A DNA stretch of 64,000 nt from Candidatus Omnitrophota bacterium (GTDB taxonomy: Bacteria; Omnitrophota; Gorgyraeia; Gygaellales; Profunditerraquicolaceae). Below the pieces are notes generated by a model, which was not told the DNA's origin, ran no database searches, and saw only the letters and a list, made by a program, of their open reading frames with translations. Position 1 is the stretch's first letter, and every line of letters begins with the position of its first letter. Shown here piece by piece: positions 1,708 through 33,726 of the stretch. The stretch covers positions 2,175-66,174 of the forward strand of contig JBAZOC010000002.1 of assembly GCA_041648915.1 (NCBI GenBank). The letters run 5' to 3'. The position numbers and the translations under genes are program-made.

Positions 1708-1722
1708 TCGAGAGCAGCTAGC

Positions 1723-1757
1723 CTGTCGGCCGGCAGCCAGGACTGCCGTAGGCAGTC
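1723..1757 (+). repeat. two GC-rich palindromes in the ispE-spoVG spacer (ctgtcggccggcag; gactgcc-gta-ggcagtc)
   Basis: The first is a near copy of the intragenic ispE repeat core. The second is a 7-3-7 inverted repeat that directly abuts the agggaggg Shine-Dalgarno of the next gene. Confidence 0.7.
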
Positions 1758-1770
1758 AGGGAGGGTCAAG

Positions 1771-2160: not shown

Positions 2161-2174
2161 ATTGAACGCTGATT

Positions 2175-2245
2175 TGGGATGTCGTCCAATGGTAGGACAC
2201 GAGAATTTGGGTCTCGCTATCATGGTTCGAATCCATGCGTCCCAG
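2175..2245 (+). tRNA. tRNA-Gln (anticodon UUG)
   Basis: Cloverleaf folded by hand: acceptor tgggatg/cgtccca, D stem gtcc/ggac, anticodon stem cgaga/tctcg with loop atTTGgg, T arm catgg-ttcgaat-ccatg. 71 nt, no encoded CCA. Confidence 0.9.
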
Positions 2246-2255
2246 CTTAATAGCT

Positions 2256-5228: not shown

Positions 5229-5233
5229 AAGAA

Positions 5234-19024: not shown

Positions 19025-20293
19025 ATGCTGGATATTAAATTTATCAGAGAAAACCCGCAATTGGTAAAGCAGGCGTTAAAAAACCGTAAGCTTAAGCTGG
19101 ATTTAGATGTTTTTATTCAGCTGGATAGCCGACACCGGGAAATTCTAACCAAGCTGGAGGATCTAAGGGCTAAGCGTAATAAAGCCAATGACGAGATCAG
19201 CATCCTGCTTAAACAAAAAAAAGAGGCTAAAGAGAAAATCAACTCTATGAAGGATGTTTCCGGCCAGATTTCCCAGCTGGAGAATGAAATAAAGGAGATT
19301 GATCGCCAGCTCGATATAATCATCTTGACTATTCCCAATATTCCGCATTCATCTATCCCGGTGGGTGAGCCGGCCAAAAACGCGGTGGTGCGCAGCTGGG
19401 GAGAGAAACGGCAATTCGGTTTTAAACCACAAGCACATATTGATTTAGCCCAAAATCTGGATATCATTGATTTTAACCGGGCGACCAAGATTACCGGCTC
19501 GAATTTTATACTATATAAAGGCTGGGGAGCCAGATTAGAGCGCGCCTTGATTAACTTTATGCTGGATTTACATACCGCTAAGCATGGTTACACCGAAGTT
19601 TTTCCGCCATTTTTGGTCAACCGGTCCTCCATGCTTGGAACGGGCCAGTTGCCAAAGCTGGAAGAAGATATGTATAAACTAAAGGACGATGATTTATTTT
19701 TGATTCCTACTGCCGAAGTCCCGGTAACTAATATTTTCCGCGACGAAATCCTCGAAGAAGCCAAATTACCAGTTTATTATACCGCCTATACCGCCTGTTT
19801 CCGGAGAGAGGCGGGGACTTACGGAAAAGAGACCCGGGGTTTAATCCGCGTGCACCAGTTTGACAAAGTAGAAATGGTTAAATTTGTCCGGCCGGAAAAC
19901 TCTTACGCTGAATTGGAAAAACTGGTTAAAGATGCCGAAGAGGTTTTACAGCTTTTAGAGATTCCTTACCGGGTATTGCTGCTGGCGACGCAGGATTTAA
20001 GTTTTTCCGCCAGTAAATGCTATGACCTGGAGGCTTATGCCCCGGGATTAGATAAATGGCTGGAGGTTTCCAGCTGCAGCAATTTTGAAAGTTTCCAGGC
20101 CCGCCGGGCAAATATAAGGTTCAGGAAGCAGGAAGATAAGCGGGTGGATTTTGTGCATACTTTGAATGGCTCGGGGGTTGCGCTTGCGCGCACGGTGGTA
20201 GCGATTTTAGAGAATTACCAGCAGGAAGACGGTTCGATTTTAATACCTAAAGCCTTAAGGGGGTATTTGGATGGAAAAGAAAGAATTTCCTAA
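19025..20293 (+). CDS. serS: seryl-tRNA synthetase
   Basis: MLDIKFIRENP N-terminal coiled-coil arm and class II core (TAEVP, FRREAG.YGK.TRGLIRVHQF, NGSG.A..R). Confidence 0.95.
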   Translation: MLDIKFIRENPQLVKQALKNRKLKLDLDVFIQLDSRHREILTKLEDLRAKRNKANDEISILLKQKKEAKEKINSMKDVSGQISQLENEIKEIDRQLDIIILTIPNIPHSSIPVGEPAKNAVVRSWGEKRQFGFKPQAHIDLAQNLDIIDFNRATKITGSNFILYKGWGARLERALINFMLDLHTAKHGYTEVFPPFLVNRSSMLGTGQLPKLEEDMYKLKDDDLFLIPTAEVPVTNIFRDEILEEAKLPVYYTAYTACFRREAGTYGKETRGLIRVHQFDKVEMVKFVRPENSYAELEKLVKDAEEVLQLLEIPYRVLLLATQDLSFSASKCYDLEAYAPGLDKWLEVSSCSNFESFQARRANIRFRKQEDKRVDFVHTLNGSGVALARTVVAILENYQQEDGSILIPKALRGYLDGKERIS

Positions 20294-20981
20294 TAAATTT
20301 TCTGACCCGAAGATTAAACCTGTCTGGAAAGAGAGAGGAGCTAAGGGGGGCGGATGGTCTAAGCCTGCCTGGATCTCCAATAAGATATTTGATCTCCTGA
20401 AACTCGTTCTGGGTATATGTCTACTCCCTTTTGTTTATTCCTCTTCGGTAGCTTTCCTGGGCCAGATCTCTTCTATTGATGTTGTGCTGCAGAATTATTT
20501 CTGGGCTGGGGTAGTTACCCTGGTTTTGGTCTATTTATTCATTTGGGAGCCGACAGTTATTTACGAGCGGGGACACAGATTGGTGGAGATAATTTTTAGT
20601 TTTTTCCAACCTCTGGTTAGATTCGCGCCGTATCTCTTGCCTGTCTACACGATAGTTTTATTTATTCTCTACCTTTTCCTGTGCGTCTTTATCAAGGATA
20701 AATGGTTGATGGAATGGGCGATGTTCTTCTTTGGTTTAAGTATCGCCATGCATTTGGTATTCGCGGCTCAATCTATCCGCTCTAAAAAAGGAGACCTGCT
20801 TAAAAGCAATTATATTTTCGGGTTTTCTTTTATGTACATTATCAGCCTCGGGTTAATGGCGTTATTCCTTAATTTCCTATTCAAGGAATTTTCCATCGTT
20901 AGTTTTTCCAACGAGGCATATTCTCTAGCCGGTTCAATCTTTAAGGCTATTTTTTCTCAGCTTTTTATAGTTAAATCTTAG
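20271..20981 (+). CDS. hypothetical polytopic membrane protein
   Basis: Several long hydrophobic segments seen by eye. No motif I recognise. The start is uncertain (overlaps the serS end by 23 nt). Confidence 0.6.
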   Translation: MEKKEFPNKFSDPKIKPVWKERGAKGGGWSKPAWISNKIFDLLKLVLGICLLPFVYSSSVAFLGQISSIDVVLQNYFWAGVVTLVLVYLFIWEPTVIYERGHRLVEIIFSFFQPLVRFAPYLLPVYTIVLFILYLFLCVFIKDKWLMEWAMFFFGLSIAMHLVFAAQSIRSKKGDLLKSNYIFGFSFMYIISLGLMALFLNFLFKEFSIVSFSNEAYSLAGSIFKAIFSQLFIVKS

Positions 20982-21065
20982 GTGGGGTGCCAGAGTGGTC
21001 GAATGGGCCTGTCTTGAAAACAGGTGTCCTTCACGGGACCGTGAGTTCGAATCCCACCCCCACCG
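20981..21065 (+). tRNA. tRNA-Ser (anticodon UGA)
   Basis: Acceptor ggtgggg/ccccacc, anticodon stem cctgt/acagg with loop ctTGAaa, long variable arm. The first nt coincides with the last nt of the upstream stop codon. Confidence 0.88.
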
Positions 21066-21136
21066 TAAATTAATCCGGAGAGTTGGTAGAGCGGCCGAAG
21101 GCGGCGCCTGCGGGAAGAATCAGGAAGATACATATT

Positions 21137-23170
21137 ATGGAAGATATTTCATTAAAAGAATTTCTTACTCTGGTTGAAGTTGATGATTTTGATAAACGTT
21201 ACGCCCAAGATATAGGCAACGGTAAATATTTTGGGTTTCCTCTTGAACCGGTGATCCAGGCGGAGAAGAGGCTGCGCGAAGAGAAAGAGGGATCTATTGC
21301 TTATTTCTCCATGGAGTATGGCTTAGCTACAAGTTTTTATAATACATTCCAATCGCAAAACCCTTCTCGGGTAGAGAATAAGACCCCCCGGAATACCGTT
21401 TTTTCAAATTACCGTATAGCCGATTATTTTTTTGACGTACAGATTAACAGTCTTATTGACCTGCCTATATACAGCGGCGGATTAGGGGTTTTGGCGGGGG
21501 ATACCGTCAAAACAATGGCGGATTATAAGCTGCCGGCTGTAGGTATCGGTATCTTGTGGCATTCCGGATATTTTCGCCAGGAATTTTGGTTTAAATACGG
21601 GCAGGTTCCGGAGAAGACGCATTGGGATGCCTATAGCTACCCCGGGCTGATTCCGCTTAAAAATACCGTAACGCTCCGGCTTAAGAACGAAGAGATACAT
21701 TTGAAGCTTTGGAAATATTATGTCTATAGCTATAAGCGTGATTACGCGCTTCCGCTTATTTTACTTGATGCGGAGATACCCGAGAACAGGGAAGATCTGA
21801 AAACGCTTACCGAACAGCTGTACCGCAGCGACAATTCCTGGATTAAGCTCATGCAAAGAGTAGTCTTGGGTTTTGGCGGCGTAAACGCTATAAATGCCTT
21901 AGGTTATCCGATTAAGATCTTTCATCTGAACGAAGGACACGCGGTCTTTGCTTTCATGGAGAAGGCGCGCGGTTATACCGATCAACAGGTGGAAGAGCTC
22001 AAGAAACAGTTTTGCTATACCTGCCATACTCCGGTTCAGGCCGGGCATGACCGTTTTTCTCAGGATGACCTGCAGGGGGTCCTGCAGGAAGAAGATTTCA
22101 GGCTCATCCAGAGTTTAGGGAGGGAAGATTCAGGGCTGATTAATTTAACCCTTCTTTCCATGAATATAGCTTCTTCCATAAATGCGGTCTCTAAAAGGCA
22201 CCAGGAAGTCATGCAGTTACAGTTTCCCTCATATAAGGAGAGGATAAAATACGTTACCAACGGTGTCCATCCCTATACCTGGATTTCCGGAGATTACCTG
22301 AAGTTATTTAAAAGTTTTAGCCCTCCCCTGGGCGATGTTGAATCTGATCCTATGTCGCTGGTCCAGGCTGGGAATTTGAAGGAGAATAGTGATTTTCGCA
22401 AACAAATATGGCTGGCGCATAGAGCTAATAAGGAGAGGCTCTGTTCTTTGCTCGAGAAGTGGAAGTTCAAAGAGGATGTATTTACTGTCTGCTGGGCGCG
22501 CAGAATAGCCGCTTATAAAAGGCCAAGTCTTATCCTCCAGGATATAGACAGGCTTATGGAAATTGCCCGAAAAACCGGGCCTTTGCAAATAATCCTGGCC
22601 GGGAAGGCCCATCCCAACGATAATTTAGGTTTTACTTTTATCAATGAAATGCTGGACAAAGTTGATAAACTGGCCGATAAGGATTACGATATATTAAAGA
22701 TCGTAATCCTGGAAAATTACGATATTTATTTAGGAAAGCTGCTTACCTCGGGAGTAGACTTATGGCTGAATAATCCTTATCCTCCTTTTGAAGCCTCCGG
22801 GACAAGCGGAATGAAAGCGATCCTGAATGGAGTCGTGCAGATGACTACAGCGGACGGCTGGGTGGTGGAAGCGGAGGATAAGGGGATCGGAAGGGTTTTC
22901 GGATACCGTTATGCCGGCGGTAAGATCGGAAGCGAGTTTGACCGCTCCATAAAAGCCGACGCCCAGGATCTTTATGAAACGCTGGAGGAGCTCTCTACAG
23001 TATATTATTCAACTTTTAAGGATGAGTTTAATCTTTCTTCCCAATGGATTGATATGATGATTAATTGCGTGGCTACGGGTGCGCATTTTAATACCTATAG
23101 GATGCTCAATGAATATAAAAGCCTGGTTTGGGATCCTTGCTTGCAAAAGGAGGGGGTTTTAAGGGCTTAG
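21137..23170 (+). CDS. glgP: alpha-glucan (glycogen/maltodextrin) phosphorylase, GT35 short alpha-glucan family
   Basis: YFSMEYGL, GGLGVLAGD, NEGHA, and the PLP-lysine region EASGTSGMKA. Start set at ATG 21137 (aggaag SD). Confidence 0.9.
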   Translation: MEDISLKEFLTLVEVDDFDKRYAQDIGNGKYFGFPLEPVIQAEKRLREEKEGSIAYFSMEYGLATSFYNTFQSQNPSRVENKTPRNTVFSNYRIADYFFDVQINSLIDLPIYSGGLGVLAGDTVKTMADYKLPAVGIGILWHSGYFRQEFWFKYGQVPEKTHWDAYSYPGLIPLKNTVTLRLKNEEIHLKLWKYYVYSYKRDYALPLILLDAEIPENREDLKTLTEQLYRSDNSWIKLMQRVVLGFGGVNAINALGYPIKIFHLNEGHAVFAFMEKARGYTDQQVEELKKQFCYTCHTPVQAGHDRFSQDDLQGVLQEEDFRLIQSLGREDSGLINLTLLSMNIASSINAVSKRHQEVMQLQFPSYKERIKYVTNGVHPYTWISGDYLKLFKSFSPPLGDVESDPMSLVQAGNLKENSDFRKQIWLAHRANKERLCSLLEKWKFKEDVFTVCWARRIAAYKRPSLILQDIDRLMEIARKTGPLQIILAGKAHPNDNLGFTFINEMLDKVDKLADKDYDILKIVILENYDIYLGKLLTSGVDLWLNNPYPPFEASGTSGMKAILNGVVQMTTADGWVVEAEDKGIGRVFGYRYAGGKIGSEFDRSIKADAQDLYETLEELSTVYYSTFKDEFNLSSQWIDMMINCVATGAHFNTYRMLNEYKSLVWDPCLQKEGVLRA

Positions 23171-23175
23171 AGACT

Positions 23176-23262
23176 GGAGAGTTGGCAGAGCGGTTGAATG
23201 CGGCGGTTTCGAAAACCGTTGTCGTCGTAAGACGACCGGAGGTTCAAATCCTCCACTCTCCG
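23176..23262 (+). tRNA. tRNA-Ser (anticodon CGA)
   Basis: Acceptor ggagagt/actctcc, anticodon stem gcggt/accgt with loop ttCGAaa, long variable arm gtcgtcgtaagacgac, T arm ggagg-ttcaaat-cctcc. Confidence 0.88.
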
Positions 23263-23308
23263 TTAGTATTTTACGACAAGAAAAATTCTGATTATAGCTT
23301 TAAATTTG

Positions 23309-23396
23309 GGAGAGGTGCCGGAGCGGTCGAACGGGCATGTCTGGAGAACATGTGAGCCGCAAGGTTCCCAGGGTTCGAATCCCTGCCTCTCCGCCA
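23309..23396 (+). tRNA. tRNA-Ser (anticodon GGA), CCA encoded
   Basis: Acceptor ggagagg/cctctcc, anticodon stem catgt/acatg with loop ctGGAga, long variable arm, T arm caggg-ttcgaat-ccctg, 3' gcca. Confidence 0.9.
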
Positions 23397-23529
23397 GTTT
23401 TTAGGTGAACCCTTCAGACGAGGAGGGTGGCAAAGAATGTCCACACTAATTGTGGACGCGAACCCTAGATTGAAATTGAAGGTGTTTGCTAAAATTATCC
23501 GAGATCATTGTTTTTTTATTAGGATTTAA

Positions 23530-24147
23530 ATGAAAGACGAAACAAAGTTATTCTATGATTTGATGGCGGAGAAAACCGCTGATGAATGGTATAAAAACGA
23601 CATTTTATTACCAACGATAAAAGATTTTTTCAGCCTTCTTCCGTTCAAGCCACGTATATTAGATCTGGGCTGTGGCCCTGGACACGAGAGTATGCGATTG
23701 GAATCATTGGGGGCAAAAGTGGTCGGTATTGATTTTAGTGGTGAATGCATCAAGGTTGCAAAGGAGAGATGTCCTCGATGCAGATTTGAAGCTATGAATT
23801 TTTTCAAATTGGATGATAGCCTTGGAAAGTTTGATGCCGTTTTTGCCTGTGCATCTTTGATTCATGTGACCGAAAATCTATTGGAAACAGTTTTGCGCAA
23901 TGTGGCTGATTTAATAGCTGAAAAAGGATATTTTCTCGCAATAGTTCAAGATGGCCGGGGCATTAATGAAAAGTGGAGCACTTTAGAAGTTAGTGGCAGA
24001 AAGATCCGTAGAGAAGTTCATTGTTTCAACAAAGAATGTTTAGTGATAAATACTCAGAGGGCAGGTTTGTGCTTCATAAGAGAGGGGTATTTGGATAAAA
24101 GTCTTTTTGAGCAAAAATGGAGAAATTATATATTTCAGAAGGTTTAA
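23530..24147 (+). CDS. class I SAM-dependent methyltransferase
   Basis: Motif I ILDLGCGPGHES, then VVGIDFS and the post-I/II pattern. Confidence 0.8.
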   Translation: MKDETKLFYDLMAEKTADEWYKNDILLPTIKDFFSLLPFKPRILDLGCGPGHESMRLESLGAKVVGIDFSGECIKVAKERCPRCRFEAMNFFKLDDSLGKFDAVFACASLIHVTENLLETVLRNVADLIAEKGYFLAIVQDGRGINEKWSTLEVSGRKIRREVHCFNKECLVINTQRAGLCFIREGYLDKSLFEQKWRNYIFQKV

Positions 24148-24337
24148 TCTATCGCAGGTTTTTGTCGATAGTTTTATCGCGATGTAAAAATGGGAATACC
24201 GGCTCATCCAGGGCGATAAGCCAGCCCATACTCCGTTTTCGATAAATTTTTATAAGTAGGCTTGCTTCAACGATTTGTAGGGTTCGCCTGGCGTCAACGA
24301 CAAGCCGTTATTTTTTAGCGTACGTATAAGGAATATT

Positions 24338-25972
24338 ATGAAGATCGGCGAATATTTAATTAAGCAAGTGCTCGCAACAGGAACGCAGCACGTATTTGGC
24401 ATTCAGGGCGATTACGTATTAAATTTCTACGCCCAGCTTTGTAAAAGTCCGCTTAAGGTCATCAATACCTGTAATGAGGAGGGAGCTGGTTTTGCTGCAG
24501 ATGCCTACGCACGAGTAAAAGGGTTTGGGGTTGTATGTGTTACCTATGGTGTCGGCGGGCTTAAGCTTGCGAATAGCACAGCGCAGGCTTTTGCCGAGAT
24601 CTCTCCTGTACTTGTGATTAGCGGCGCTCCGGGAATGGCCGAACGCAGGCATAATCCGCTTCTTCATCATAAGGTCCGTTCTTTTGAAACGCAACTTAAT
24701 GTATTCAGGGAAATGACCGTAGCGCAGGCAGTATTGGGGGATGCCAAAACCGCTGCTGCCGAAATCCAGCGTGTCATAGATGTCATTAAAGAAATTAAGA
24801 GGCCTGGATATATAGAACTGCCTAGAGATATGGTAGATGTGGATATATGTGAGCCGCAGGTGCCTGTTTCGGGAGAATCTTCAGATTTAGACCGGCCGGC
24901 TATTGACGAGGCTCTGCGCGAAGTTTTGGGTATGCTTGCGGCAGCGAAACGCCCGATAATAATAGCCGGGGTTGAAATTAATCGTTTTGGATTACAGGCA
25001 CTTTTCTTAAAATTTCTCGAACGCTCAGGGCTTCCGTTTGTGACCGGTGTTCTGGGAAAATCAGTAGTATCAGAGAGTCATCCGCATTTTATTGGTGTTT
25101 ATGCGGGAGGGATGAGTCCTGAGGATGTTCGCGAGGCGGTAGAAGATTCCGATTGCGTTATAGCAGTAGGTCCGTATGTAACCGATCTTGCCACCGGGAT
25201 ATTTACGCATCATATAGATATTGCGCAGAGTATAGTTATGGCGCCGGATAAAATTTCGGTCAAGCATCATTCTTATCCGGAGGTTGGCATGAAGTATTTT
25301 CTTGAATCTTTGGTTGCGGCGATACCGAAAACCCCGAAAAAAATCAGGCAACCCAAAAAGTATGAACTTTCGCCATTTATTTATCAAAAAGGCAGCAAAA
25401 TAACCGTAAATCGTCTTTTTGCATGTTTAAATACTTTCTTAGACGATAATACTACGGTGATTGCAGAACCGGGAGATTCGCTCTTTGGCTCGCTTGATCT
25501 AAGAGTCCATGGGATGGCAGAATTCCTTTCTCCGGCTTATTATGCTTCATTAGGTTTTTCAGTCCCTGCGTCAATAGGCGTTCAACTTGCTGCTGCGCAT
25601 CGGCGTCCGCTTGTCCTTGTCGGAGACGGAGCCTTTCAAATGTCGGGAATGGAGCTTTCCGTCAGTGTCCGGTATGGCCTTAGCCCGATCGTAGTTATTC
25701 TCGATAATGGCGGATATGGAACGTTTCGCCCTATGCTCAACGGATCTTTTAACGATATCCAGCCTTGGCAATACGCGGATATCGTTAAGGTTATTGGCGG
25801 CGGAAAGGGGTACACGGTTTCTACTGAAGACGAACTTATATCTGCCCTTGAGGCCGCAAGGAAAAATGATTCCTTCCCTACTATTATAGACGTTAGACTT
25901 GAAAAATATGATTGTTCTGACCGGTTAAAGAAGTTGAGCGGTAAATTGAAAAAACAGGTGAAACAACAATAA
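24338..25972 (+). CDS. thiamine-diphosphate-dependent alpha-keto-acid decarboxylase (indolepyruvate/phenylpyruvate decarboxylase family)
   Basis: N-terminal Pyr domain (HVFGIQGDYVLNF..NEEGAGFAADAYAR..GVGGL) and C-terminal PP domain GDGAFQM...LDNGGYG. Confidence 0.85.
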   Translation: MKIGEYLIKQVLATGTQHVFGIQGDYVLNFYAQLCKSPLKVINTCNEEGAGFAADAYARVKGFGVVCVTYGVGGLKLANSTAQAFAEISPVLVISGAPGMAERRHNPLLHHKVRSFETQLNVFREMTVAQAVLGDAKTAAAEIQRVIDVIKEIKRPGYIELPRDMVDVDICEPQVPVSGESSDLDRPAIDEALREVLGMLAAAKRPIIIAGVEINRFGLQALFLKFLERSGLPFVTGVLGKSVVSESHPHFIGVYAGGMSPEDVREAVEDSDCVIAVGPYVTDLATGIFTHHIDIAQSIVMAPDKISVKHHSYPEVGMKYFLESLVAAIPKTPKKIRQPKKYELSPFIYQKGSKITVNRLFACLNTFLDDNTTVIAEPGDSLFGSLDLRVHGMAEFLSPAYYASLGFSVPASIGVQLAAAHRRPLVLVGDGAFQMSGMELSVSVRYGLSPIVVILDNGGYGTFRPMLNGSFNDIQPWQYADIVKVIGGGKGYTVSTEDELISALEAARKNDSFPTIIDVRLEKYDCSDRLKKLSGKLKKQVKQQ

Positions 25973-25994
25973 TAGAGTTCAGAAATGAAAAAGT

Positions 25995-26022
25995 TTGACA
26001 AAAATTTCAAATAGTTTATACT
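25995..26022 (+). promoter_or_regulatory. sigma70-type promoter (TTGACA - 16 nt - TATACT)
   Basis: Hexamers at 25995-26000 and 26017-26022, about 80 nt upstream of the small ORF at 26104. Confidence 0.6.
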
Positions 26023-26103
26023 GTCGCTGGCGGTAATTATTTTCCATAAAGGGGCGCTTGAGGCAGAACTACCGGCAATATATTCTCAAAATGGAGGCGC
26101 AAG

Positions 26104-26214
26104 ATGAAATCAAAAAAGGTAAACAAGAAAGCAAAAGCAAAAAAAGTAAATAAAACTACGAAAGCGAAGAAGAAGCTCTCGCGCTACTGCCGATCAGGCA
26201 GGGTTTTGTGGTAA
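26104..26214 (+). CDS. 36-aa lysine-rich small ORF (MKSKKVNKKAKAKKVNKTTKAKKKLSRYCRSGRVLW), candidate RiPP precursor
   Basis: Below the ORF-track cutoff; found by hand. ggagg SD lies 6 nt upstream of the ATG. It is the first ORF after the promoter and sits ~100 nt upstream of a radical SAM/SPASM gene. Confidence 0.45.
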   Translation: MKSKKVNKKAKAKKVNKTTKAKKKLSRYCRSGRVLW

Positions 26215-26417
26215 GGATCTTTGCGCCAGCCGGAACATTCTTAATATCTGCGTTTTACAAAAATCCAGATTAGGTATCAAGCAATCAGGCGGGACTCCGT
26301 ATTTTTTAGGAGTAGATTATTATTAAAAGACTTTCACCAGTTGTTTTATTCCATAAATTAGGCCGCTATATCGGCATATCTACATCTACGGGGGATTTTT
26401 ACGATCTGTCTCCGGAA

Positions 26418-27821
26418 ATGTATAATTTATTAAAAAAATGGAATAAAGAGCTATCCTCTTTTCCGTTTCCTCCTAAACAGGAAGCCGCAGTTTTAGCAAA
26501 GAAGTTAAATATCCCCCTAAAAATAATAAATTTTTTTCCCGTTTCCGACAAAAAGATATCATTTAAAAGCGATAAGAGCACATCTGCCGGGCTCACCGAT
26601 CTAACCCTCAATTTAACGTCAAGCTGTAATCTTCGTTGTGTTTATTGCTGGAATGATCATGGCCAATATTCCAATCGGCACTTTTCGGAGAAACAAAACA
26701 GAGAATTTAAGGAAGATATTAAAGATGCATCTATGTCAATTAGGACTGCCTTAAAGGCGGTAGATATCTTAGTTGGTGCGCGGGGAAAAGAAAAAAATTT
26801 AGTAGTGGATTTTTATGGCGGTGAGCCCCTGTTGAATCTTAGAACACTTAGGACAACGGTTGATTATTGCCGAGAAAACCAATCAAAATGGAAAACAAAG
26901 TTTCATTTCCTCTTGGCAACGAATGGGACCCTTTTAAGCCCGGATGTAGCCGAGGAGTTAATTAATAAGGGGGTGCAAATTGCCGTGAGCATCGATGGCC
27001 CCAGGGCTGTCCATGATAATAACCGCCCGTTTATCAATCAAAGGGGCAGTTTTGATATAATTTTAGCAAACCTTAAAAGAATGCCTAGGGCAGTCATGAA
27101 AAGGCTGGTGGGCCGTACTACGGTAACCCCATTTTTTCCGGATATGGTAAAATTGTATGAGAATTTAAGGAACCTGGGGTTTGAGCGGATTGAGCTTTTT
27201 GAAAGTGAAGATGCCTGCCATAGGTTCTTCCCCGGGCAGGAGGCAAGTTTTTTCAGCACGGAAGATAGTTATAAGCTTCTATGCAAAACATACGAGAAAT
27301 TGGCATTGCGCTATATCGATGATGTTGTTTCGGGAAATTTGAATTACAGTAAAACGTTCTTTAACCGGTTTTTTAAATTAATGCAAAGGTTATATTATAA
27401 CCAGGAAGTTTCCGGAGGCTGCCCTGCCGCCAAAGGACAGATTGCAGTAGGTATTGACGGTAAGATTTATCCCTGTACTTCATTTTTAGGGGTGCGTGAA
27501 TTTGAATTGGGGCAGGTGGATTGCGGTATTGATAATAAGAGGTTTCAGGCGTTTATCGAAAAGATAAATAAGCGGTTTGAATATTGCCAGAAAGATTGTG
27601 ATCTCTTCAGCCTTTGCCGTTCAACAGGTTCCTGCCTGAATGTTAATTATTTTTTTAATGGAGACCCTGCCGTACCGCATAAAAGAAGTTGCGCTCTTTT
27701 TGCCGAAAAATTAGCTTTGGCCGCCGCAAGTTTATCTATTCTTTCCGAGAAAATCCCTCACCGGCTGGAGGAGTTGTTTGGCTTTGACCCAATAGGTAGA
27801 AGAGGAAATAAATTATATTAA
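26418..27821 (+). CDS. radical SAM / SPASM-domain enzyme (peptide-maturase or anSME-like); true start probably upstream at ~26316
   Basis: CNLRCVYC cluster, FYGGEPLL, and a C-terminal Cys-rich SPASM region (GGCPA..YPC...CQKDCDLFSLCRSTGSC). The frame stays open 34 codons upstream of the ATG, behind an aggag SD. Confidence 0.85.
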   Translation: MYNLLKKWNKELSSFPFPPKQEAAVLAKKLNIPLKIINFFPVSDKKISFKSDKSTSAGLTDLTLNLTSSCNLRCVYCWNDHGQYSNRHFSEKQNREFKEDIKDASMSIRTALKAVDILVGARGKEKNLVVDFYGGEPLLNLRTLRTTVDYCRENQSKWKTKFHFLLATNGTLLSPDVAEELINKGVQIAVSIDGPRAVHDNNRPFINQRGSFDIILANLKRMPRAVMKRLVGRTTVTPFFPDMVKLYENLRNLGFERIELFESEDACHRFFPGQEASFFSTEDSYKLLCKTYEKLALRYIDDVVSGNLNYSKTFFNRFFKLMQRLYYNQEVSGGCPAAKGQIAVGIDGKIYPCTSFLGVREFELGQVDCGIDNKRFQAFIEKINKRFEYCQKDCDLFSLCRSTGSCLNVNYFFNGDPAVPHKRSCALFAEKLALAAASLSILSEKIPHRLEELFGFDPIGRRGNKLY

Positions 27822-27830
27822 AAAAAACAC

Positions 27831-27858
27831 TTGACAAAAAGCGGTAAGAGGATAAACT
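27831..27858 (+). promoter_or_regulatory. sigma70-type promoter (TTGACA - 16 nt - TAAACT) of the Fur-headed locus
   Basis: Hexamers at 27831-27836 and 27853-27858. Confidence 0.6.
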
Positions 27859-27861
27859 AGT

Positions 27862-27874
27862 AATGGTAACCATT
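27862..27874 (+). promoter_or_regulatory. 6-1-6 palindrome AATGGT-A-ACCATT, candidate operator overlapping the transcription start
   Basis: Perfect inverted repeat read directly, 4 nt downstream of the -10 element and 22 nt upstream of the fur-family ATG. Confidence 0.5.
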
Positions 27875-27896
27875 TTCAATAACTAAGGAAATTAAT

Positions 27897-28367
27897 ATGC
27901 CAAGAAGAGATTGTGCGGGGCCGCTATGGTGGCACGGAAAATTCAGAGGCTGTGGCTATCGGATAACTTCCGGCAGGGAGGCTATTCTGGAGGTGCTTTC
28001 TAAATCCGATAAACATCTAAGCGCCGAAGATATCTATATGAAAGTCCATCCCAAATATCCTAATATTGGTTTAACCACTATCTATAGGACATTGGATGTC
28101 TTAGCCAGCTTAGGTCTTATTTTCAAGTTTGATTTTGGGGATAAAAGAGCGCGTTATGAATTAGCAGAAGGCCCTAAGGGCGCGCACCATCACCACCATT
28201 TAATATGCACAAGCTGTAATCGTGTTATTGATTATGCGGACTTTATTGATGAAGAGGTAGAACTGCTCAATCAGACAGAAAAAGGCCTGGCTAAGAAATA
28301 CGACTTTAAGATTACTAACCATTTAATTCAGTTTTACGGTTTATGTAATGCCTGTGTTAAGAAATAG
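27897..28367 (+). CDS. fur: Fur-family metalloregulator with a ~20-aa N-terminal extension
   Basis: Winged-helix region (ILEVLSKSDKHLSAEDIY...TIYRTLD.L), metal-site HHHHHLIC, and paired CxxC motifs (CTSC, CNAC). Confidence 0.88.
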   Translation: MPRRDCAGPLWWHGKFRGCGYRITSGREAILEVLSKSDKHLSAEDIYMKVHPKYPNIGLTTIYRTLDVLASLGLIFKFDFGDKRARYELAEGPKGAHHHHHLICTSCNRVIDYADFIDEEVELLNQTEKGLAKKYDFKITNHLIQFYGLCNACVKK

Positions 28368-28496
28368 CTGTATTTTTTTCTTATATAATGGAAATGGTTT
28401 TTACTAGCAATAAAATAGGCAATGGCTAGGTCAAGATTTATGGAGCTGGCCGTGAGCCGATAAAGATAAAAAAAGCAAAGGAAGGAGGTGTTTAAT

Positions 28497-28883
28497 ATGC
28501 CAAGAGGAGATGGAACAGGGCCAATGGGATTAGGTCCGGCAACAGGAAGAGCAGCGGGTTTCTGTGCGGGTTATTCTATGCCTGGCTATGCGAATCCGGT
28601 ACCGGGCAGAGGTTATGTTGGCCAAGGTAGAAAAGGGTTCTTCGGCCGCGGTAGCAACAGGGGCCGGAGAAATTGGTATTACGCTACCGGCATTCCTGGA
28701 TGGCAGAGAGCCTCAATGGGGATGCCTGCTTTTGGCGGGGCGTATTCTTATGCGCCTGAAGTTACTCCGAAGCAGGAAGCAGATATCTTAAAAAATGAAG
28801 CTGATTTTTTGAAAAAACAGCTTGAAGATATCCAGAGCCGCATTGAGACGTTAGAAAATGTCCAGGCAGCAAAAAGTGAGTAA
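28497..28883 (+). CDS. DUF5320-like protein (MPRGDGTGP N-terminus, Gly/Arg-rich middle, C-terminal coiled coil)
   Basis: The N-terminal MPRGDGTGPMGLGP.TGR..G.CAG pattern is recalled from the DUF5320 family. Start set at ATG 28497 (ggagg SD). Confidence 0.75.
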   Translation: MPRGDGTGPMGLGPATGRAAGFCAGYSMPGYANPVPGRGYVGQGRKGFFGRGSNRGRRNWYYATGIPGWQRASMGMPAFGGAYSYAPEVTPKQEADILKNEADFLKKQLEDIQSRIETLENVQAAKSE

Positions 28884-28891
28884 CTACTAGA

Positions 28892-28930
28892 AGATGAGGG
28901 AATAGGTAATGAAGATCTATTCCCTCATCT
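28892..28930 (+). other. perfect 14-bp hairpin (agatgagggaatag / ctattccctcatct, 11-nt loop) between cistrons
   Basis: Read directly. Followed by gggtttatt, a weak T-tract. Confidence 0.65.
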
Positions 28931-28955
28931 GGGTTTATTAGAATAAGGAGCGAAT

Positions 28956-29354
28956 ATGCGTGTAGCTATATCTACCGATGGAGAGTTTGTATCCGCCCAT
29001 TTTGGCAGGTGCCCAACTTTTACTCTTGTTGATATCGAGAAGGGCAAGGTAACCCAGATGACGGAAGTGGCAAACCCCGGGCATCAGCCGGGCGCAATTC
29101 CTGAATTTTTGCATAAAAAAGGTGTAAATTGTATTGTTGCCGGCGGTATGGGGATGCGGGCAACATCATTTTTTGAAGAGTACAGCATCAAGACAATTGT
29201 GGGGATAAGCGGGAAGATCGCTGCAGTGGTAGAACAGTTTAAAAAAGGCACCTTGGAAGGAGGAGAGAGCCTCTGTAGGCCCGGAGAGGGTAAAGGTTAT
29301 GGCTTAGAAAAAGAAGAATGCGATCATCCGCATAAAGAGGATTGTGACCATTAA
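28956..29354 (+). CDS. NifB/NifX-type (dinitrogenase FeMo-cofactor-biosynthesis domain) cluster-binding protein
   Basis: MRVAIST.G..VS.HFGRCP.F..VDIE.G pattern plus a C-terminal Cys/His-rich tail. Confidence 0.8.
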   Translation: MRVAISTDGEFVSAHFGRCPTFTLVDIEKGKVTQMTEVANPGHQPGAIPEFLHKKGVNCIVAGGMGMRATSFFEEYSIKTIVGISGKIAAVVEQFKKGTLEGGESLCRPGEGKGYGLEKEECDHPHKEDCDH

Positions 29355-29368
29355 GGAGGTTTGAGGTT

Positions 29369-29746
29369 ATGAAAATATGTGTTACTTCAGAAGGCAGCAG
29401 TTTAGATTCTAAGGTAGATCCGCGTTTCGGCAGGTGCCAGCATTTTATTATCGTTGATACCGATTCTTTAGAATTTGAAGCAGTCGAAAACCCGAATATT
29501 GAATCTATGGGGGGCGCCGGGATTCAGTCGGCACAACTCGTGGCTTCTAAAAAGGTTAAGGCCGTAGTTACGGGAAACATGGGCCCGAATGCTTTTCAGA
29601 CCCTGCAGGCGGCAGGAATAGAAGTTTTTACGGGAGCCTCGGGTACGGTTCAGGAGGCGCTTAATAAATATAAAAAAGGAGAATTTAAGGCAGTTTCCGG
29701 CCCCAGCGTAGGTTCGCATTCTGGAATACCGAATAAGAATAAATAA
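29369..29746 (+). CDS. NifB/NifX-type cluster-binding protein (second copy)
   Basis: MKICVTSEG..L.S.VDPRFGRCQHFIIVD....FEAVENP and VVTGNMGPNAF. Confidence 0.8.
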   Translation: MKICVTSEGSSLDSKVDPRFGRCQHFIIVDTDSLEFEAVENPNIESMGGAGIQSAQLVASKKVKAVVTGNMGPNAFQTLQAAGIEVFTGASGTVQEALNKYKKGEFKAVSGPSVGSHSGIPNKNK

Positions 29747-29808
29747 GTAGTTGTTATGGCGACGACGCAGATTTTAGTTGGAAAATAGCGGAAAAGGAGG
29801 TGATGAAT

Positions 29809-29997
29809 ATGCCGAGAGGAGACGGAACTGGCCCTAGAGGCCAAGGTGCAGGGATGGGTAGGGGTAGAAGGGGTAATGCGGGCCCCGGAGGGAATTGCAT
29901 ATGTCCTTCCTGCGGGGAAAAGATCCCGCATCAGGCAGGCACACCCTGTGCTTCGATGAATTGCCCTAAGTGCGGGATAAGGATGGTAAGAGAATAA
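29809..29997 (+). CDS. DUF5320-like small protein with a C-terminal double zinc-ribbon
   Basis: MPRGDGTGPRG N-terminus, Gly/Arg-rich region, then CICPSCG...CPKCG. Start set at ATG 29809. Confidence 0.7.
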   Translation: MPRGDGTGPRGQGAGMGRGRRGNAGPGGNCICPSCGEKIPHQAGTPCASMNCPKCGIRMVRE

Positions 29998-30015
29998 CAG
30001 AAGGGAGCAGAATAA

Positions 30016-30501
30016 ATGGGTACAAAAGCAAGAGAGTTAGTCGGTGCCGATGTTAAAAAGGTGGTTATTTTGTTAAACAAGGCTTTTGCGGATGAATGGC
30101 TTGCCTATTATCAATATTGGGTAGGAGCTAAAATCGCGCGCGGACAGATGCGTAATGCAGTCGTCAATGAATTAGAACAGCATGCGGGCGAAGAACTGAA
30201 GCACGCCGGGATGCTTACCGAAAGAATCATTCAGCTTGGCGGGATACCTGTATTGAAGCCCGAGGATTGGTATAAAGAGGCAAATTGCGAATATGCTGCG
30301 CCTGAAGATCCTGCGGTCAATGCGCTTTTAAAACAAAATATCAAAGGCGAGCAATGTGCCATAGAAGTTTACCGGAAGCTCTCAGAGGCCACAAAGGATA
30401 AGGATGTGGTTACATATCATCTTGCGCTGGAAATAATGGCGGATGAGATTGAACACGAAGAAGATTTGGAATCTCTATTGGAAGATATGACGAGTAAGTA
30501 G
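30016..30501 (+). CDS. ferritin-like / Dps-like di-iron protein
   Basis: Four-helix-bundle ligand pattern: E..H in ELEQHAGEELKHA and E..H in ADEIEHEEDL. Confidence 0.75.
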   Translation: MGTKARELVGADVKKVVILLNKAFADEWLAYYQYWVGAKIARGQMRNAVVNELEQHAGEELKHAGMLTERIIQLGGIPVLKPEDWYKEANCEYAAPEDPAVNALLKQNIKGEQCAIEVYRKLSEATKDKDVVTYHLALEIMADEIEHEEDLESLLEDMTSK

Positions 30502-30507
30502 GCACCT

Positions 30508-31113
30508 TTGGATAAAGAAATTTTAGAGAACAACAAAAAGTATTTAGAGCGGGTTGCGTTTTACCGAAGCAACGGGTACGATTTAGAAAAGGAAAGAGAT
30601 TTTATCCTGGATAAATCCCTGCCTATTTCCGGGGAAATCCTTGAAATCGGGACCGGTAAGGGCCATTTTGCGCTTGCTTTGGCAAAGCGGGGCTATAGTT
30701 TCACGAGTATAGATATCTCTCAACAGGATCAAGAGATAGCTAGGCTAAACTTGCGTTATTTTGGTCTGGAAAAACAGGTTATCCTCAAGATGGAAGACGC
30801 CGAACGTTTGAGTTTTCCGGGCCAAAGTTTTCATATTATATTTTCCATTAATGTATTCCATCATTTAAAGAGGCCAGTAGCTGTTTTAGATGAAATAATC
30901 CGCTTGTTGCGCCCAAAGGGCAAGGCGGTCTTAAGCGATTTTAGCGCTAGGGGCTTAGAGATTATTAACGCCTGCCATACGCGCGAGGGCAGGACGCACG
31001 ATCATTGCAAGTACCGTTTAAGAGAAGCAAAAAATTATTTCGTTAGAAAAGGATTTAGCATTAAGGAGTGCCAGAGCGCAGTCCAGGAAGTACTTATAGC
31101 CGAGGGAACTTAA
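30508..31113 (+). CDS. class I SAM-dependent methyltransferase
   Basis: Motif I ILEIGTGKGHFA, then IDIS and VLRPKG. TTG start. Confidence 0.75.
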   Translation: MDKEILENNKKYLERVAFYRSNGYDLEKERDFILDKSLPISGEILEIGTGKGHFALALAKRGYSFTSIDISQQDQEIARLNLRYFGLEKQVILKMEDAERLSFPGQSFHIIFSINVFHHLKRPVAVLDEIIRLLRPKGKAVLSDFSARGLEIINACHTREGRTHDHCKYRLREAKNYFVRKGFSIKECQSAVQEVLIAEGT

Positions 31114-31124
31114 GGATAAAAGAT

Positions 31125-31979
31125 ATGATTATTTCAGTGGCCAGCGGAAAAGGCGGGACGGGAAAGACGACAGTGGCGGTTAATTTGGCTTTATCCCTAA
31201 GCAACGTGCAGCTTGTTGATTGCGATGTTGAAGAGCCTAACGCCCATATTTTTTTAAAACCAATTATTAAAAAGCAAAATAAGGCTTATATTCCTGTCCC
31301 GGAAATTGATGATGCAAAATGCGTTTATTGCGGAGAATGCGCCAAGGTTTGTGTTTATAATGCGCTAGCCGTACTTCCGGGGGCAGAAGGCAAGAAAGGC
31401 ACAACCCTGGTGTTTGCGCAGCTATGCCATGGCTGCGGCGCCTGCAGCGCTCTTTGTCCTGAAAAGGCGATAAAAGAAGTAAATAGGGAAATAGGAGTAG
31501 TGGAGATAGGCAATTGCGGAAAAGTAGAATTTGTCCACGGGAAACTCAATATCGGCGAAGCGATGTCCCCGCCTCTTATCCGCCAGGTTAAAGAACATAT
31601 CAACATTAAGAAGACTGTGATCATTGACGCCCCTCCGGGTACGTCTTGCCCGGTAGTTACTTCAGTTCAGGGTAGTAATTTTTGTTTATTAGTTACTGAA
31701 CCTACTCCATTTGGCTTAAATGATTTGGTTTTAGCGGTAGAGGTATTAAGAAAAATAAAGATTCCTTTTGGGGTAGTGATTAATCGTTCAGATTTAGGAA
31801 ATAATAAAACCGAGGCATACTGCAAGCAAGAAGGTATTTCGGTATTGATGAGAATACCATTTAAAAAAGAAATAGCCAGGGCTTATTCCCAGGGAGAGCC
31901 TATAGTTAAGGCATTCCCGGAGTATAAAAAAGATTTTCGTAGCCTTTTTAATACAATTAAAAATGGAAAATTTAGTTAA
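31125..31979 (+). CDS. MinD/ParA-type P-loop ATPase with an inserted 2x[4Fe-4S] ferredoxin domain
   Basis: Deviant Walker A ASGKGGTGKTT and two CxxCxxCxxxCP motifs (CVYCGECAKVC, CHGCGACSALCP). Start set at ATG 31125. Confidence 0.85.
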   Translation: MIISVASGKGGTGKTTVAVNLALSLSNVQLVDCDVEEPNAHIFLKPIIKKQNKAYIPVPEIDDAKCVYCGECAKVCVYNALAVLPGAEGKKGTTLVFAQLCHGCGACSALCPEKAIKEVNREIGVVEIGNCGKVEFVHGKLNIGEAMSPPLIRQVKEHINIKKTVIIDAPPGTSCPVVTSVQGSNFCLLVTEPTPFGLNDLVLAVEVLRKIKIPFGVVINRSDLGNNKTEAYCKQEGISVLMRIPFKKEIARAYSQGEPIVKAFPEYKKDFRSLFNTIKNGKFS

Positions 31980-32376
31980 AGATTTCTTAAAGCAGAAAAG
32001 ATTCGCCGTAGTAGGTTCATTCAGGAATGAGGAAAAATTTGCCTATAAAATTTTAATTAATTTAACAGAAAAAAATTATGAAGTTTTTCCTGTTAATCCA
32101 CGTATGCGCGAAGTTGGAGGGAGGGTTTGTTATAAGACTATAAGCGATATTCCATATAAGGTGGATGTTGCCAATATAGTTACTCCTCCGTTGATAACTG
32201 AAGGTATTTTAAAAGAATGCTCGCGGAAAGGCATAAAAAGAGCATGGCTTCAGCCTGGCGCAGAGAATCAAGCTGGCATCAAGTTTTGTCATGATCATGG
32301 CATAAAGGTAATTCATGGCCTTTGTGTCCGGTTAGAATTGTTGAAAGAAAGGGAGACCTTATGTGTAAAAAGGTAG
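31963..32376 (+). CDS. CoA-binding domain protein
   Basis: FAVVGSFRNEEKFAYKI...NYEVFPVNPR and Rossmann-like CoA_binding pattern. Confidence 0.75.
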   Translation: MENLVKDFLKQKRFAVVGSFRNEEKFAYKILINLTEKNYEVFPVNPRMREVGGRVCYKTISDIPYKVDVANIVTPPLITEGILKECSRKGIKRAWLQPGAENQAGIKFCHDHGIKVIHGLCVRLELLKERETLCVKR

Positions 32377-33710
32377 ATATACTTATTATCGGCGCGGGCC
32401 CCGCAGGCGTAGTAAGTGCCGTAACTGCCAGAAAATACTATCCCTCAAAAAGCATTTTAGTGATTAAGGATATTGAAGATGGGGTGATCCCCTGCGGAAT
32501 TCCTTATATGTTTGCCAGCCTGGATAACCCTGCTGAGAATAAGTTAGGGATGGCATCTTTGGAAAAGAACAATATTGAATTAGTCATTGATACGGCTGTA
32601 AGTATAAATCGAAAAGGAAAAACGATAGAAACGGCAAGCAAGGTTCAATATTCCTATGAAAAGTTAGTTTTGGCCATTGGTTCAACGCCCTTGATCTTGC
32701 CTATTAAGGGGGTAGATAAGCAGGGGGTCTATCTAATAAATAAAGAAATGAGGTATTTAAAGAACGTTATAGCGCAGATTAAACTCTGTAAAAATGTCTT
32801 AGTAATCGGAGGAGGGTTTATCGGTGTTGAGTTCGCTGATGAGCTTTGTAAATTAAAGGGAATAAAGGTTACCTTGGTAGAGATGCTCCCGCATTTACTG
32901 GCTAATTCCTTTGACCCTGAGTTTTCGCAGATGGCTGAAGCACGTTTAAAGGAAAAAGGAGCTCACATTTTAACTAATACTCGGGTGGAGGAAATAATCG
33001 GCCAGGGTAAAGTCGAAAAAATTAAGTTTAGCGACGGTAAAGTAATGCCCGCTGAAGGAGTAATTCTTGGTGTGGGTTCAAGCCCGAATGTAAAGCTAGC
33101 TATAGATGCGGGATTGGAGCTGGGGTCTTGTAAGGGCATTTTAACCGATGAATATATGCGTACTTCGGTTGACCCGGATATTTTTGCGATTGGAGATTGT
33201 TCTTGCAAGAGAGATTTTTATACCCGCAAAGCCATTTCCGTGATGCTTGCGTCTACTGCGACGGCTGAAGCGAGAATCGCGGGAGCCAATCTTTATCAGA
33301 TAAAAGTTATCCGTGAGAACAAGGGGACGATTGCTATATATTCAACGTATATTGACGGACTGGTTCTGGGTTCGGCAGGGCTTACCGAAAAGACCGCGCG
33401 GGAAGAAGGTTTTGAAATTGTAGTCGTCAGCATAGATGGCGTTGATAAGCATCCCGCTTCTTTACCGGGGGCTTGTAAAGGCAAAATTAAACTAATTTTT
33501 TCTAAACAGTCCGGGATTATTTTGGGAGGCCAGGTTAGTTGTGGTATGTCTTGCGCCCAAATGATCAATATCATTGGTATTGCTATCCAGAAGCGTATGT
33601 CGGCAACCGAACTGGAGACTTTACAGGTAGCCACGCACCCTTATCTAACCAGCGCGCCTACGATGTACCCTATTATTCTAGCCGCTCAAGATGTGTATGG
33701 GAAAATATAA
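32361..33710 (+). CDS. FAD-dependent pyridine nucleotide-disulfide oxidoreductase, CoA-disulfide reductase / NADH oxidase family
   Basis: GAGPAG FAD fold, single redox Cys in VIPCGIPYMF, second GGGFIGVE fold, and AIGDC. Confidence 0.82.
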   Translation: MCKKVDILIIGAGPAGVVSAVTARKYYPSKSILVIKDIEDGVIPCGIPYMFASLDNPAENKLGMASLEKNNIELVIDTAVSINRKGKTIETASKVQYSYEKLVLAIGSTPLILPIKGVDKQGVYLINKEMRYLKNVIAQIKLCKNVLVIGGGFIGVEFADELCKLKGIKVTLVEMLPHLLANSFDPEFSQMAEARLKEKGAHILTNTRVEEIIGQGKVEKIKFSDGKVMPAEGVILGVGSSPNVKLAIDAGLELGSCKGILTDEYMRTSVDPDIFAIGDCSCKRDFYTRKAISVMLASTATAEARIAGANLYQIKVIRENKGTIAIYSTYIDGLVLGSAGLTEKTAREEGFEIVVVSIDGVDKHPASLPGACKGKIKLIFSKQSGIILGGQVSCGMSCAQMINIIGIAIQKRMSATELETLQVATHPYLTSAPTMYPIILAAQDVYGKI

Positions 33711-33726
33711 CCAAGGATAAGATTAT

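Follow-up and report, generated by a model that had tools for sequence, protein, structure and literature searches.

We followed up a candidate modified-peptide locus in a 64,000-nucleotide stretch of DNA from a Candidatus Omnitrophota bacterium (assembly GCA_041648915.1, contig JBAZOC010000002.1, positions 2,175 to 66,174; hereafter the window), for which a sequence-only reading had proposed that a short lysine-rich peptide and the radical S-adenosylmethionine (SAM) enzyme encoded after it form a precursor and maturase pair, as in peptides that are made on the ribosome and modified after translation (RiPPs). The promoter, the GGAGG site, the 36-residue open reading frame (ORF) and the downstream radical SAM/SPASM gene of that reading were all found again in place, on the forward strand. 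The sigma-70-like promoter, TTGACA-16-TATACT (25995–26022; 11/12 match), is the top promoter-like site of the region, and the Shine-Dalgarno sequence GGAGG (26093–26097) stands 6 nt ahead of the ATG of the peptide gene (26104–26214; 36 aa and a stop), which is supported by the ORF listing, 95 distinct homologs and a codon-position test. Its product, MKSKKVNKKAKAKKVNKTTKAKKKLSRYCRSGRVLW, consists of a polybasic leader (residues 1–24, 26104–26175), delimited by the family alignment, and an invariant core, LSRYCRSGRVLW (26176–26211), in which Cys29 is encoded at 26188–26190 and the C-terminal Trp36 at 26209–26211, with TAA immediately after. A spacer of 101 nt (26215–26315), in which no conserved element was found, leads to the gene of a predicted radical SAM/SPASM peptide maturase of ~499–501 aa (26316–27821, with the Shine-Dalgarno sequence AGGAG at 26307–26311), identified by hidden Markov models, ortholog alignment and a fold model.

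Because 114 ORFs of at least 30 aa overlap positions 20000–34000, a 36-codon ORF alone is not beyond chance, and it is comparative evidence that decides. In 74 distinct DNAs encoding peptides of the window's type (type 1 below), the first and second positions of the last 12 codons have an entropy of ~0 bits, and the third positions mostly one of 1.0–1.8 bits (0.36 for Cys and 0 for Trp). All synonymous codons of the core are used, including CGN and AGR for Arg and CTN and TTR for Leu, and directly past the stop codon the entropy rises to ~1.9 bits at every position. This synonymous-only variation indicates that the ORF is translated and that the peptide is under very strong purifying selection, and it disposes of the earlier caveat that the A-rich stretch might be non-coding. 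The stretch is not a known RNA either, as an Rfam scan of 24000–30000 at E values up to 1 returned no RNA family. Of 85 non-redundant loci, 38 have a promoter-like site that matches at least 10 of 12 positions upstream of the peptide gene, versus 6 of 85 control stretches; at a threshold of at least 11 of 12, the counts were 25 and 0. The peptide gene is uncalled on either public copy of the contig. A profile search of 1.84 billion representative proteins gave four matches, all of them plain family peptides, and no larger protein bearing the motif; gene callers mostly miss the peptide, which explains why so few representatives are present. An exact look-up of eight family peptides found two in the protein collection, one of them named 'hypothetical protein'. 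Neither NCBIfam nor Pfam matched the peptide (the NCBIfam peptide models not even at E = 10), a literature search for the motif strings returned unrelated matches only, and a search for Omnitrophota together with RiPP or ranthipeptide returned only general gene-cluster surveys.

The 95 distinct sequences of the family set span 26–53 aa, with one or two Cys, and the minimal form has 26–27 aa (for example, MKAKKINKTTKSKKKLSRYCRSGRVLW). Type 1 ends in the core given above and has a Lys-rich leader with an extension of 0 to ~26 residues (for example, MATAKKKVVKKKVVKKKPAKKK, from locus L027). Type 2 reads MIRLLNRRKNGRxYRAAFCRCGRVLW, and rarer forms end in RTR[F/Y]CRSGRVLW or, at L042, in RFCGCSRVLW. 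The pattern [Y/F]-C-x-x-[G/S]-R-V-L-W-stop is constant in all variants, Cys is the most conserved residue other than Trp, and neither Asp nor Glu occurs in any of the 95 cores. Ahead of the core, types 1 and 2 share a hydrophobic-Asn-Lys/Arg motif whose Asn lies exactly 13 residues before Cys; in the window this near-invariant residue is Asn16 (26149–26151), 21 residues from the C-terminus. A fixed core behind a variable leader is the inverse of the pattern in most modified-peptide families. The sequence-only reading had called the leader atypically basic; its basicity holds, but it is a trait of the whole family rather than an oddity of this locus. The window peptide corresponds to the minimal 27-mer plus nine residues, and its leader contains KKVNK twice, 9 residues apart, at residues 4–8 (26113–26127) and 13–17 (26140–26154). 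The two copies are identical at 12 of 15 bases, with the mismatches at third positions. The duplicated motif suggests an old 9-codon duplication by which the 36-mer class arose from a 27-mer; no DNA-level tandem repeat was detected there by the repeat finder.

The genes for the peptide and the enzyme are coupled in both directions of search, and this coupling survives inversion of the peptide gene. When the enzyme alignment was scanned against one genome per species, 77 loci were obtained, of which 49 have an enzyme of at least 35% identity; in ~45 of these, the enzyme gene adjoins a small ORF ending in [Y/F]C..[G/S]RVLW-stop. At L026 no peptide was found, and L035 and L048 are cut by contig ends; enzymes at ~30% identity (from Krumholzibacteriota and others) stand without the peptide. 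In the reverse test, which was blind to the enzyme, a degenerate DNA pattern for [Y/F]CRxGRVLW-stop was run against metagenome contigs and gave 79 loci. Six of them are GSV[F/L]W matches that arose by chance and lack ORF context; the other 73 are real peptide genes. An enzyme gene adjoins 69 of these 73 peptide genes; two of the other four (L120 and L149) end too near the peptide to tell, and two (L078 and L079) are atypical. The small ORF, notably its C-terminal 12 aa, is thus kept at orthologous loci. At L078 (type 2; 1368–1463, 1531–1797 (-)), an integrase/transposase-like ORF follows the peptide in place of the enzyme. At L079 (type 2; 1313–2785 (-)), the peptide is preceded by a sulfatase-like protein of the alkaline phosphatase superfamily, in which no C-x-P-x-R was seen by eye, with a phosphodiesterase-like protein ahead of it.

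Among 110 non-redundant loci, the peptide gene lies upstream of the enzyme gene on the same strand in 96 and is convergent in 5; the remaining 9 have no enzyme match at E <=1e-20, and most of them are cut by contig ends. In the convergent loci (L012, L018, L019/L110, L022 and L037), the peptide gene lies just downstream of the enzyme gene, encodes the identical core and carries its own promoter-like site (10–12 of 12). This arrangement largely refutes the idea that the small ORF is a cis-acting leader or ribosome-arrest peptide, similar to TnaC or SecM and with a Lys-rich stalling tract, that controls the enzyme gene. Such a role would fit the upstream position in the 96 loci, the C-terminal placement of the conserved residues beside the stop (as in TnaC), the A-rich Lys codons and a 5-bp hairpin, CTGCC-GATCA-GGCAG followed by GGTTTTGTGG, within the C-R-S-G-R-V-L-W codons (26187–26201). 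However, the hairpin is at chance level (the scan found 5 terminator-like sites versus 2.5 expected), the spacer between the two genes varies from -1 to 158 nt (median 71, 79 loci) with no conserved element, and the peptide type co-varies with the enzyme clade: type-1 peptides pair with enzymes 48–100% identical to that of the window, and type-2 and other variants with enzymes 35–50% identical. We therefore regard control in cis as extremely improbable.

Across 50 loci, conservation is limited to the peptide and the enzyme, with a B12-type radical SAM gene (below) as a partial exception; nearby proteases or exporters are not conserved, and the earlier caveat that neither is adjacent still stands. 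The lack of both, a composition resembling small ribosomal or histone-H1-like proteins (as in the L027 peptide) and an invariant core that would suit a structural partner could also be taken to mean that the peptide acts on its own, as a small basic protein associated with, for example, the ribosome or the nucleoid, and is merely syntenic with an enzyme whose substrate lies elsewhere. Yet the adjacency holds in both searches and through inversion, duplication and type divergence (as at L006), no other gene is conserved with either partner, and the enzyme sits in a clade of peptide maturases and has a predicted peptide-recognition domain (described below). Mere synteny is highly unlikely on these grounds, and the pairing makes it very likely that the peptide is the substrate of the enzyme. 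L006 carries a type-1 and a type-2 peptide gene within 5 kb (283–387 and 5216–5296), each beside its own enzyme gene, and one metagenome-assembled genome (JBAYMG01) carries two type-1 copies (L010 and L033), with enzymes 72% and 81% identical to that of the window; the core is invariant in all copies of both multi-copy genomes. Seven cassette loci (L001, L002, L004, L015, L020, L023 and L049) are labelled Paceibacterota, Planctomycetales, delta proteobacterium or Myxococcales, which reflects either binning or labelling noise or a real spread beyond Omnitrophota and Elusimicrobiota.

The enzyme carries the CX3CX2C radical SAM cluster motif (Cys104, Cys108 and Cys111; 26625–26648), invariant in 94 of 94 sequences and located at the same residue numbers as the radical SAM cysteines of CteB (PMC10177961). 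Its SPASM domain (27420–27692) contains seven cysteines (C369, C387, C424, C428, C434, C440 and C459), again each invariant in 94 of 94 sequences; by the list of cluster ligands in PMC10177961, they align to C344, C362 and C413 of auxiliary cluster 1 and to C400, C403, C409 and C432 of auxiliary cluster 2 of CteB. The AlphaFold2 model, built with 94 homologs, is confident (mean predicted local distance difference test (pLDDT) score 87.9; predicted template-modelling score 0.89). Together with the Foldseek comparison, it points to an N-terminal domain similar to the RiPP recognition element (RRE) at residues ~8–72 (26337–26531), with strands 9–14, 17–22 and 28–31 and helices 33–46, 54–63 and 68–71 (pLDDT mostly >80). 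Past residue 71, the model continues with a TIM-barrel-like core and then a helical/hairpin C-terminal domain. The Pfam scan of the enzyme gave 58 bits for PF04055 and no PqqD match. CteB, which has an N-terminal RRE domain (PMC6231123), is the first structure in the Foldseek ranking (5wgg_A; E 1e-27, 492 aligned columns, template-modelling (TM) scores 0.71/0.80), followed by the anaerobic sulfatase maturase anSME (E 8e-19; TM 0.61 query-normalised and 0.80 target-normalised), ChlB and TigE, and then, poorly, by SuiB (TM 0.46–0.53). A sequence search of solved structures likewise found CteB (5wgg, E 1e-35), TigE (1e-13) and anSME (3e-8); SuiB and PqqE went undetected in it.

Curated families give a similar picture. 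The highest-scoring one is the PapB ranthipeptide maturase (NF047865), with 232.6 bits versus a cut-off of 340 and the whole 330-position model aligned. It is followed by the nif11-peptide maturase (195.1 versus 518.7), the SCIFF maturase (TIGR03974; 181.4 versus 425), an ScfB-related orphan model (174.9 versus 855), QhpD (174.8 versus 453) and CcpM (165.9 versus 500). PapB, the SCIFF maturase, QhpD and CcpM, which are among the top NCBIfam matches (E 1e-69 to 1e-48), are thioether-forming maturases, and the best 25 matches (all E <=6e-14) include no Trp/Lys cross-linker, MftC or PqqE. The anaerobic sulfatase maturase models (TIGR03942 and NF010321) reach only 73.9 and 64.3 bits versus cut-offs of 349 and 441. 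By its sequence, the enzyme is thus placed in the peptide-maturase part of the SPASM group, within no named family. The sequence-only reading had named three findings that would overturn it: loss of the small ORF at orthologous loci, a non-coding pattern at third codon positions, and grouping of the enzyme with the sulfatase maturases. None of these was found; the scores above and CteB as the best solved relative speak against the last of them. The proposal of a precursor and its maturase is supported. A two-gene cassette for an enzyme-modified peptide is the best explanation of the locus and, in our view, a likely one.

The start of the enzyme gene bears on how this cassette should be handled. 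The public annotation (P0001), named 'radical SAM protein', is 100% identical and has 467 aa from an ATG at 26418. Orthologs of ~503 aa, however, align from 26316, right after the TAG at 26313–26315, and translation of the enzyme probably begins with an ATT at 26316, 26319 or 26322, ~100 nt before the first ATG. We searched for in-frame starts between the upstream stop and conserved residue 8 of the enzyme. Within the clade at least 69% identical to the window enzyme, 21 of ~38 distinct loci have no ATG, GTG or TTG in this interval, and the clade shares the start pattern 'GAGG, 3–6 nt, ATT ATT ATT AAG' (including L001, L128, L130, L004, L105, L091 and L097); more distant enzyme clades start with ATG or GTG. 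Initiation at AUU (or AUC) would be the simplest reading of these sequences. With such an upstream start, the annotated protein would be N-terminally truncated by ~34 residues and would lack the predicted recognition strands, so that cloning of the annotated 467-aa gene would drop the predicted peptide-binding domain, and activity would probably be lost. AUU initiation would also keep the enzyme scarce relative to the peptide.

We propose the following mechanism for the cassette. The strong promoter would drive expression of a short, very basic precursor, the leader of which would bind to the N-terminal recognition domain in the form of a strand, in the way that CteA docks on CteB (PMC6231123). 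The Cys, 13 residues past the leader Asn, could then reach auxiliary cluster 1. In CteB, a Cys of the peptide binds to an open site of this cluster (PMC6231123), and selenium spectroscopy has shown that the substrate Cys or selenocysteine directly contacts an auxiliary cluster in PapB and Tte1186 (PMC10177961). Reductive cleavage of SAM would generate the 5'-deoxyadenosyl radical, which would take a hydrogen from a residue on the C-terminal side of the Cys, and a thioether would close a ring of at most eight residues, maybe reaching the C-terminal Trp with its invariant free carboxylate. The modified part would be the C-terminal core, [Y/F]-C-R-[S/C]-G-R-V-L-W-COOH. A thioether ring from the single invariant Cys is the likeliest chemistry, with close to an even chance of being correct. 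The stop is invariant right after Trp, which suggests that the free carboxylate is important; PapB needs a carboxylate beside the attacked carbon (PMC12373016).

Several observations weigh against this interpretation. The enzyme falls under every curated family cut-off. The linker before SPASM contains an extra Cys (C301 in type-1 enzymes and position 295 in most type-2 enzymes) that could complete auxiliary cluster 1, as in SuiB and anSME, in which case the open Cys-binding site would be gone. The core lacks Asp and Glu, the acceptors of PapB and QhpD, and also Thr, the reported acceptor of CteB, and the similarity of the leader to that of CteA is marginal (shuffle p = 0.046). In vitro, PapB links Cys to a C-terminal Gly or D-residue but accepts neither L-residues other than Gly nor a carboxamide (PMC12373016), so a link from Cys to the C-alpha of Trp would have no direct precedent; it is an attractive possibility all the same. 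In addition, the C-x-[S/C]-x-R of the core is similar to the motif of sulfatases, and its R-x-x-W to Arg/Lys-Trp cross-link motifs. Finally, the family was found in tens of species rather than phylum-wide, and a housekeeping role is therefore not established.

Some of these points could instead indicate that the precursor and maturase are correctly paired and perform another chemistry, which we consider unlikely though by no means negligible. Three forms can be envisaged: a C–C cross-link, of the streptide or WprB type, that joins an Arg side chain to the C-terminal Trp or to the Tyr/Phe; oxidative decarboxylation and cyclisation of the C-terminal residue, as performed by MftC on the ..GVY of the mycofactocin precursor; or conversion of the Cys of C-x-[S/C]-x-R to formylglycine, as performed by the anaerobic sulfatase maturase on C-x-P-x-R. 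The invariant R-V-L-W-COOH with its stop right after Trp and the invariant aromatic residue before Cys would suit such reactions, and a Trp-Arg cross-linking enzyme, WprB, exists (PMC11851443). The spacing from Cys to Arg equals that in the sulfatase motif, anSME ranks second by structure, and with the linker Cys the clusters could be fully ligated, as they are in anSME and SuiB. The enzyme relationships, however, point elsewhere: the cross-linkers, MftC and PqqE are missing from the best 25 NCBIfam matches, SuiB is undetected by sequence and superposes poorly, and the anSME models score far under their cut-offs. We know of no N-terminal recognition domain in anSME. Moreover, the remaining mycofactocin genes are not conserved nearby, and the Cys is, after Trp, the most conserved residue of the peptide.

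Returning to the proposed thioether-forming cassette, the known system that it works most like is SCIFF/CteAB of Clostridia (CteA or Tte1186a with CteB or Tte1186). Both are two-gene cassettes without a conserved protease or transporter and with a core conserved across a large lineage. CteB is the best solved relative by sequence and fold; the two enzymes share the RRE/radical SAM/SPASM layout, the positions of CX3CX2C and the seven SPASM cysteines, and the CteA leader, MKHIKILNGSTLKDSLKKGGC, is likewise Lys-rich and in an Asn-x12-Cys register, although, as noted above, the similarity is weak. In contrast to SCIFF, whose core has six Cys in ~45 aa, the peptides here have one or two Cys in 26–53 aa, and their core, which lacks Thr, has an invariant Trp at its end; the enzyme is below the maturase cut-off, the peptide does not match TIGR03973, and the phyla differ. 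The PapB or freyrasin-type system provides the highest-scoring curated family and a Cys thioether directed towards a C-terminal acceptor, and its dependence on a carboxylate could explain the invariant free C-terminus (PMC12373016). However, the enzyme stays under the 340-bit cut-off, the PapA core consists of six CX3D repeats whereas the core here has no Asp or Glu, and PapB cyclises at the C-terminus as a side activity in vitro, for which it uses Gly, D- or beta-residues rather than L-Trp. The pair thus lies outside the PapB and SCIFF families as defined, and likewise outside those of anSME and mycofactocin; with the CteB/PapB/Tte1186 group it shares the CX3CX2C motif, a predicted RRE and a short Cys-containing precursor beside the enzyme.

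More distant comparisons are also informative. Similar to the enzyme here, QhpD is a SPASM enzyme; it acts on a small polypeptide kept in the cell as a functional part, QhpC, in which it makes Cys thioethers. QhpC also carries a Cys-Trp derived cofactor, and this analogy makes the invariant Cys...Trp pair of the core suggestive. Unlike in the QhpD system, the QhpD cut-off of 453 bits is missed, no dehydrogenase subunits, QhpG or peptidase lie nearby, and the QhpC acceptors are Asp and Glu. The anSME enzymes share the SPASM fold, and their target motif C-x-P/A-x-R resembles the C-x-[S/C]-x-R of the core. The enzyme here differs in its predicted N-terminal recognition domain and its dedicated partner of 26–36 aa, and there is no conserved sulfatase partner (a sulfatase-like gene stands beside the peptide only at L079). 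The streptide-type enzymes (StrB/SuiB, WgkB and WprB) come to mind for the R-V-L-W of the core; no affinity to SuiB was detected by sequence, and its TM score is the low one given above. As for mycofactocin MftA/MftC, the C-terminus is Val-Leu-Trp here rather than Gly-Val-Tyr, and mftB, mftD, mftE and mftF are not conserved nearby.

The invariant core behind a variable leader, together with the lack of a conserved protease or exporter, makes it probable that the product works as a full-length polycation, inside the cell or on a conserved target, rather than as a diversifying antibiotic. A second enzyme may sometimes take part. An orthologous B12-binding radical SAM protein of ~520 aa is encoded at 23 of ~83 loci with enough flank, with peptides of both types, and its gene directly follows the SPASM enzyme gene in 22 of the 23 (for example, L003, 5573–7132; L004, 5646–7211; and L044, 4136–5701). 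At L079 (3–959 (-)), it comes directly after the peptide with no SPASM gene between. These proteins are 72–89% identical between loci, and their best family is BchE (188 bits versus a cut-off of 481). No ortholog stands beside the pair in the window, where the nearest B12-type genes (53.2–57.0 kb) are just 24–34% identical. We can speculate, with considerable doubt, that the peptide is no secreted natural product and instead yields a conserved molecule that stays in the cell, with one or both of the radical SAM enzymes (SPASM and B12) taking part in its synthesis. It could be a polycationic carrier bearing a cofactor-like moiety derived from Cys and Trp, or else a modified microprotein of Omnitrophota and Elusimicrobiota that binds nucleic acids or ribosomes; its chemistry might be a natural Cys-to-C-terminal-residue link, so far unseen in nature.

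The peptide is very probably a previously undescribed enzyme-modified peptide. Its kind is familiar, namely a short precursor with a radical SAM/SPASM maturase, and new radical SAM peptide families are often found. What is new here is a core in which a single Cys is combined with an obligatory C-terminal Trp and from which the acceptor residues of the nearest enzyme relatives are missing. Together with the invariance of this core behind a variable leader, this points to a new cross-link chemistry or at least a new acceptor, and also to a product whose cellular target is conserved, in two phyla that are poorly understood and mostly uncultured. With two genes in ~1.7 kb, the system is small, and its polycationic body and the link to a second radical SAM enzyme add to its interest.

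The other genes around the pair in the window are not conserved with it. Upstream lie genes for a seryl-tRNA synthetase, a phosphorylase-like protein, a methyltransferase and a thiamine pyrophosphate-dependent decarboxylase (24338–25972), the last of which is nearest to indolepyruvate/phenylpyruvate decarboxylase (389 bits versus a cut-off of 554). As this decarboxylase is not conserved with the pair, its position beside a peptide ending in Trp is probably a coincidence. Downstream, an iron-related cluster (27831–31979) stands behind its own promoter-like site, TTGACA-16-TAAACT (27831–27858), and comprises genes for a Fur-family protein, a DUF5320 protein, two NifX/NifB-like proteins with an Fe-Mo-cofactor domain, a ferritin, a methyltransferase and a MinD/ParA-type 4Fe-4S protein. 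The decarboxylase and the Fur, ferritin and NifX-like genes were considered as partners and rejected for this lack of conservation, and two further candidates for conserved neighbours, tetratricopeptide repeat proteins (7 loci) and antisense ORFs inside the enzyme gene, were judged not meaningful. The window encodes three further radical SAM proteins (53266–54504, 56130–57038 and 61566–62210); two of them are similar to the B12-binding class B, and the third is distantly related to the SPASM enzyme (24% identity over 247 aa).

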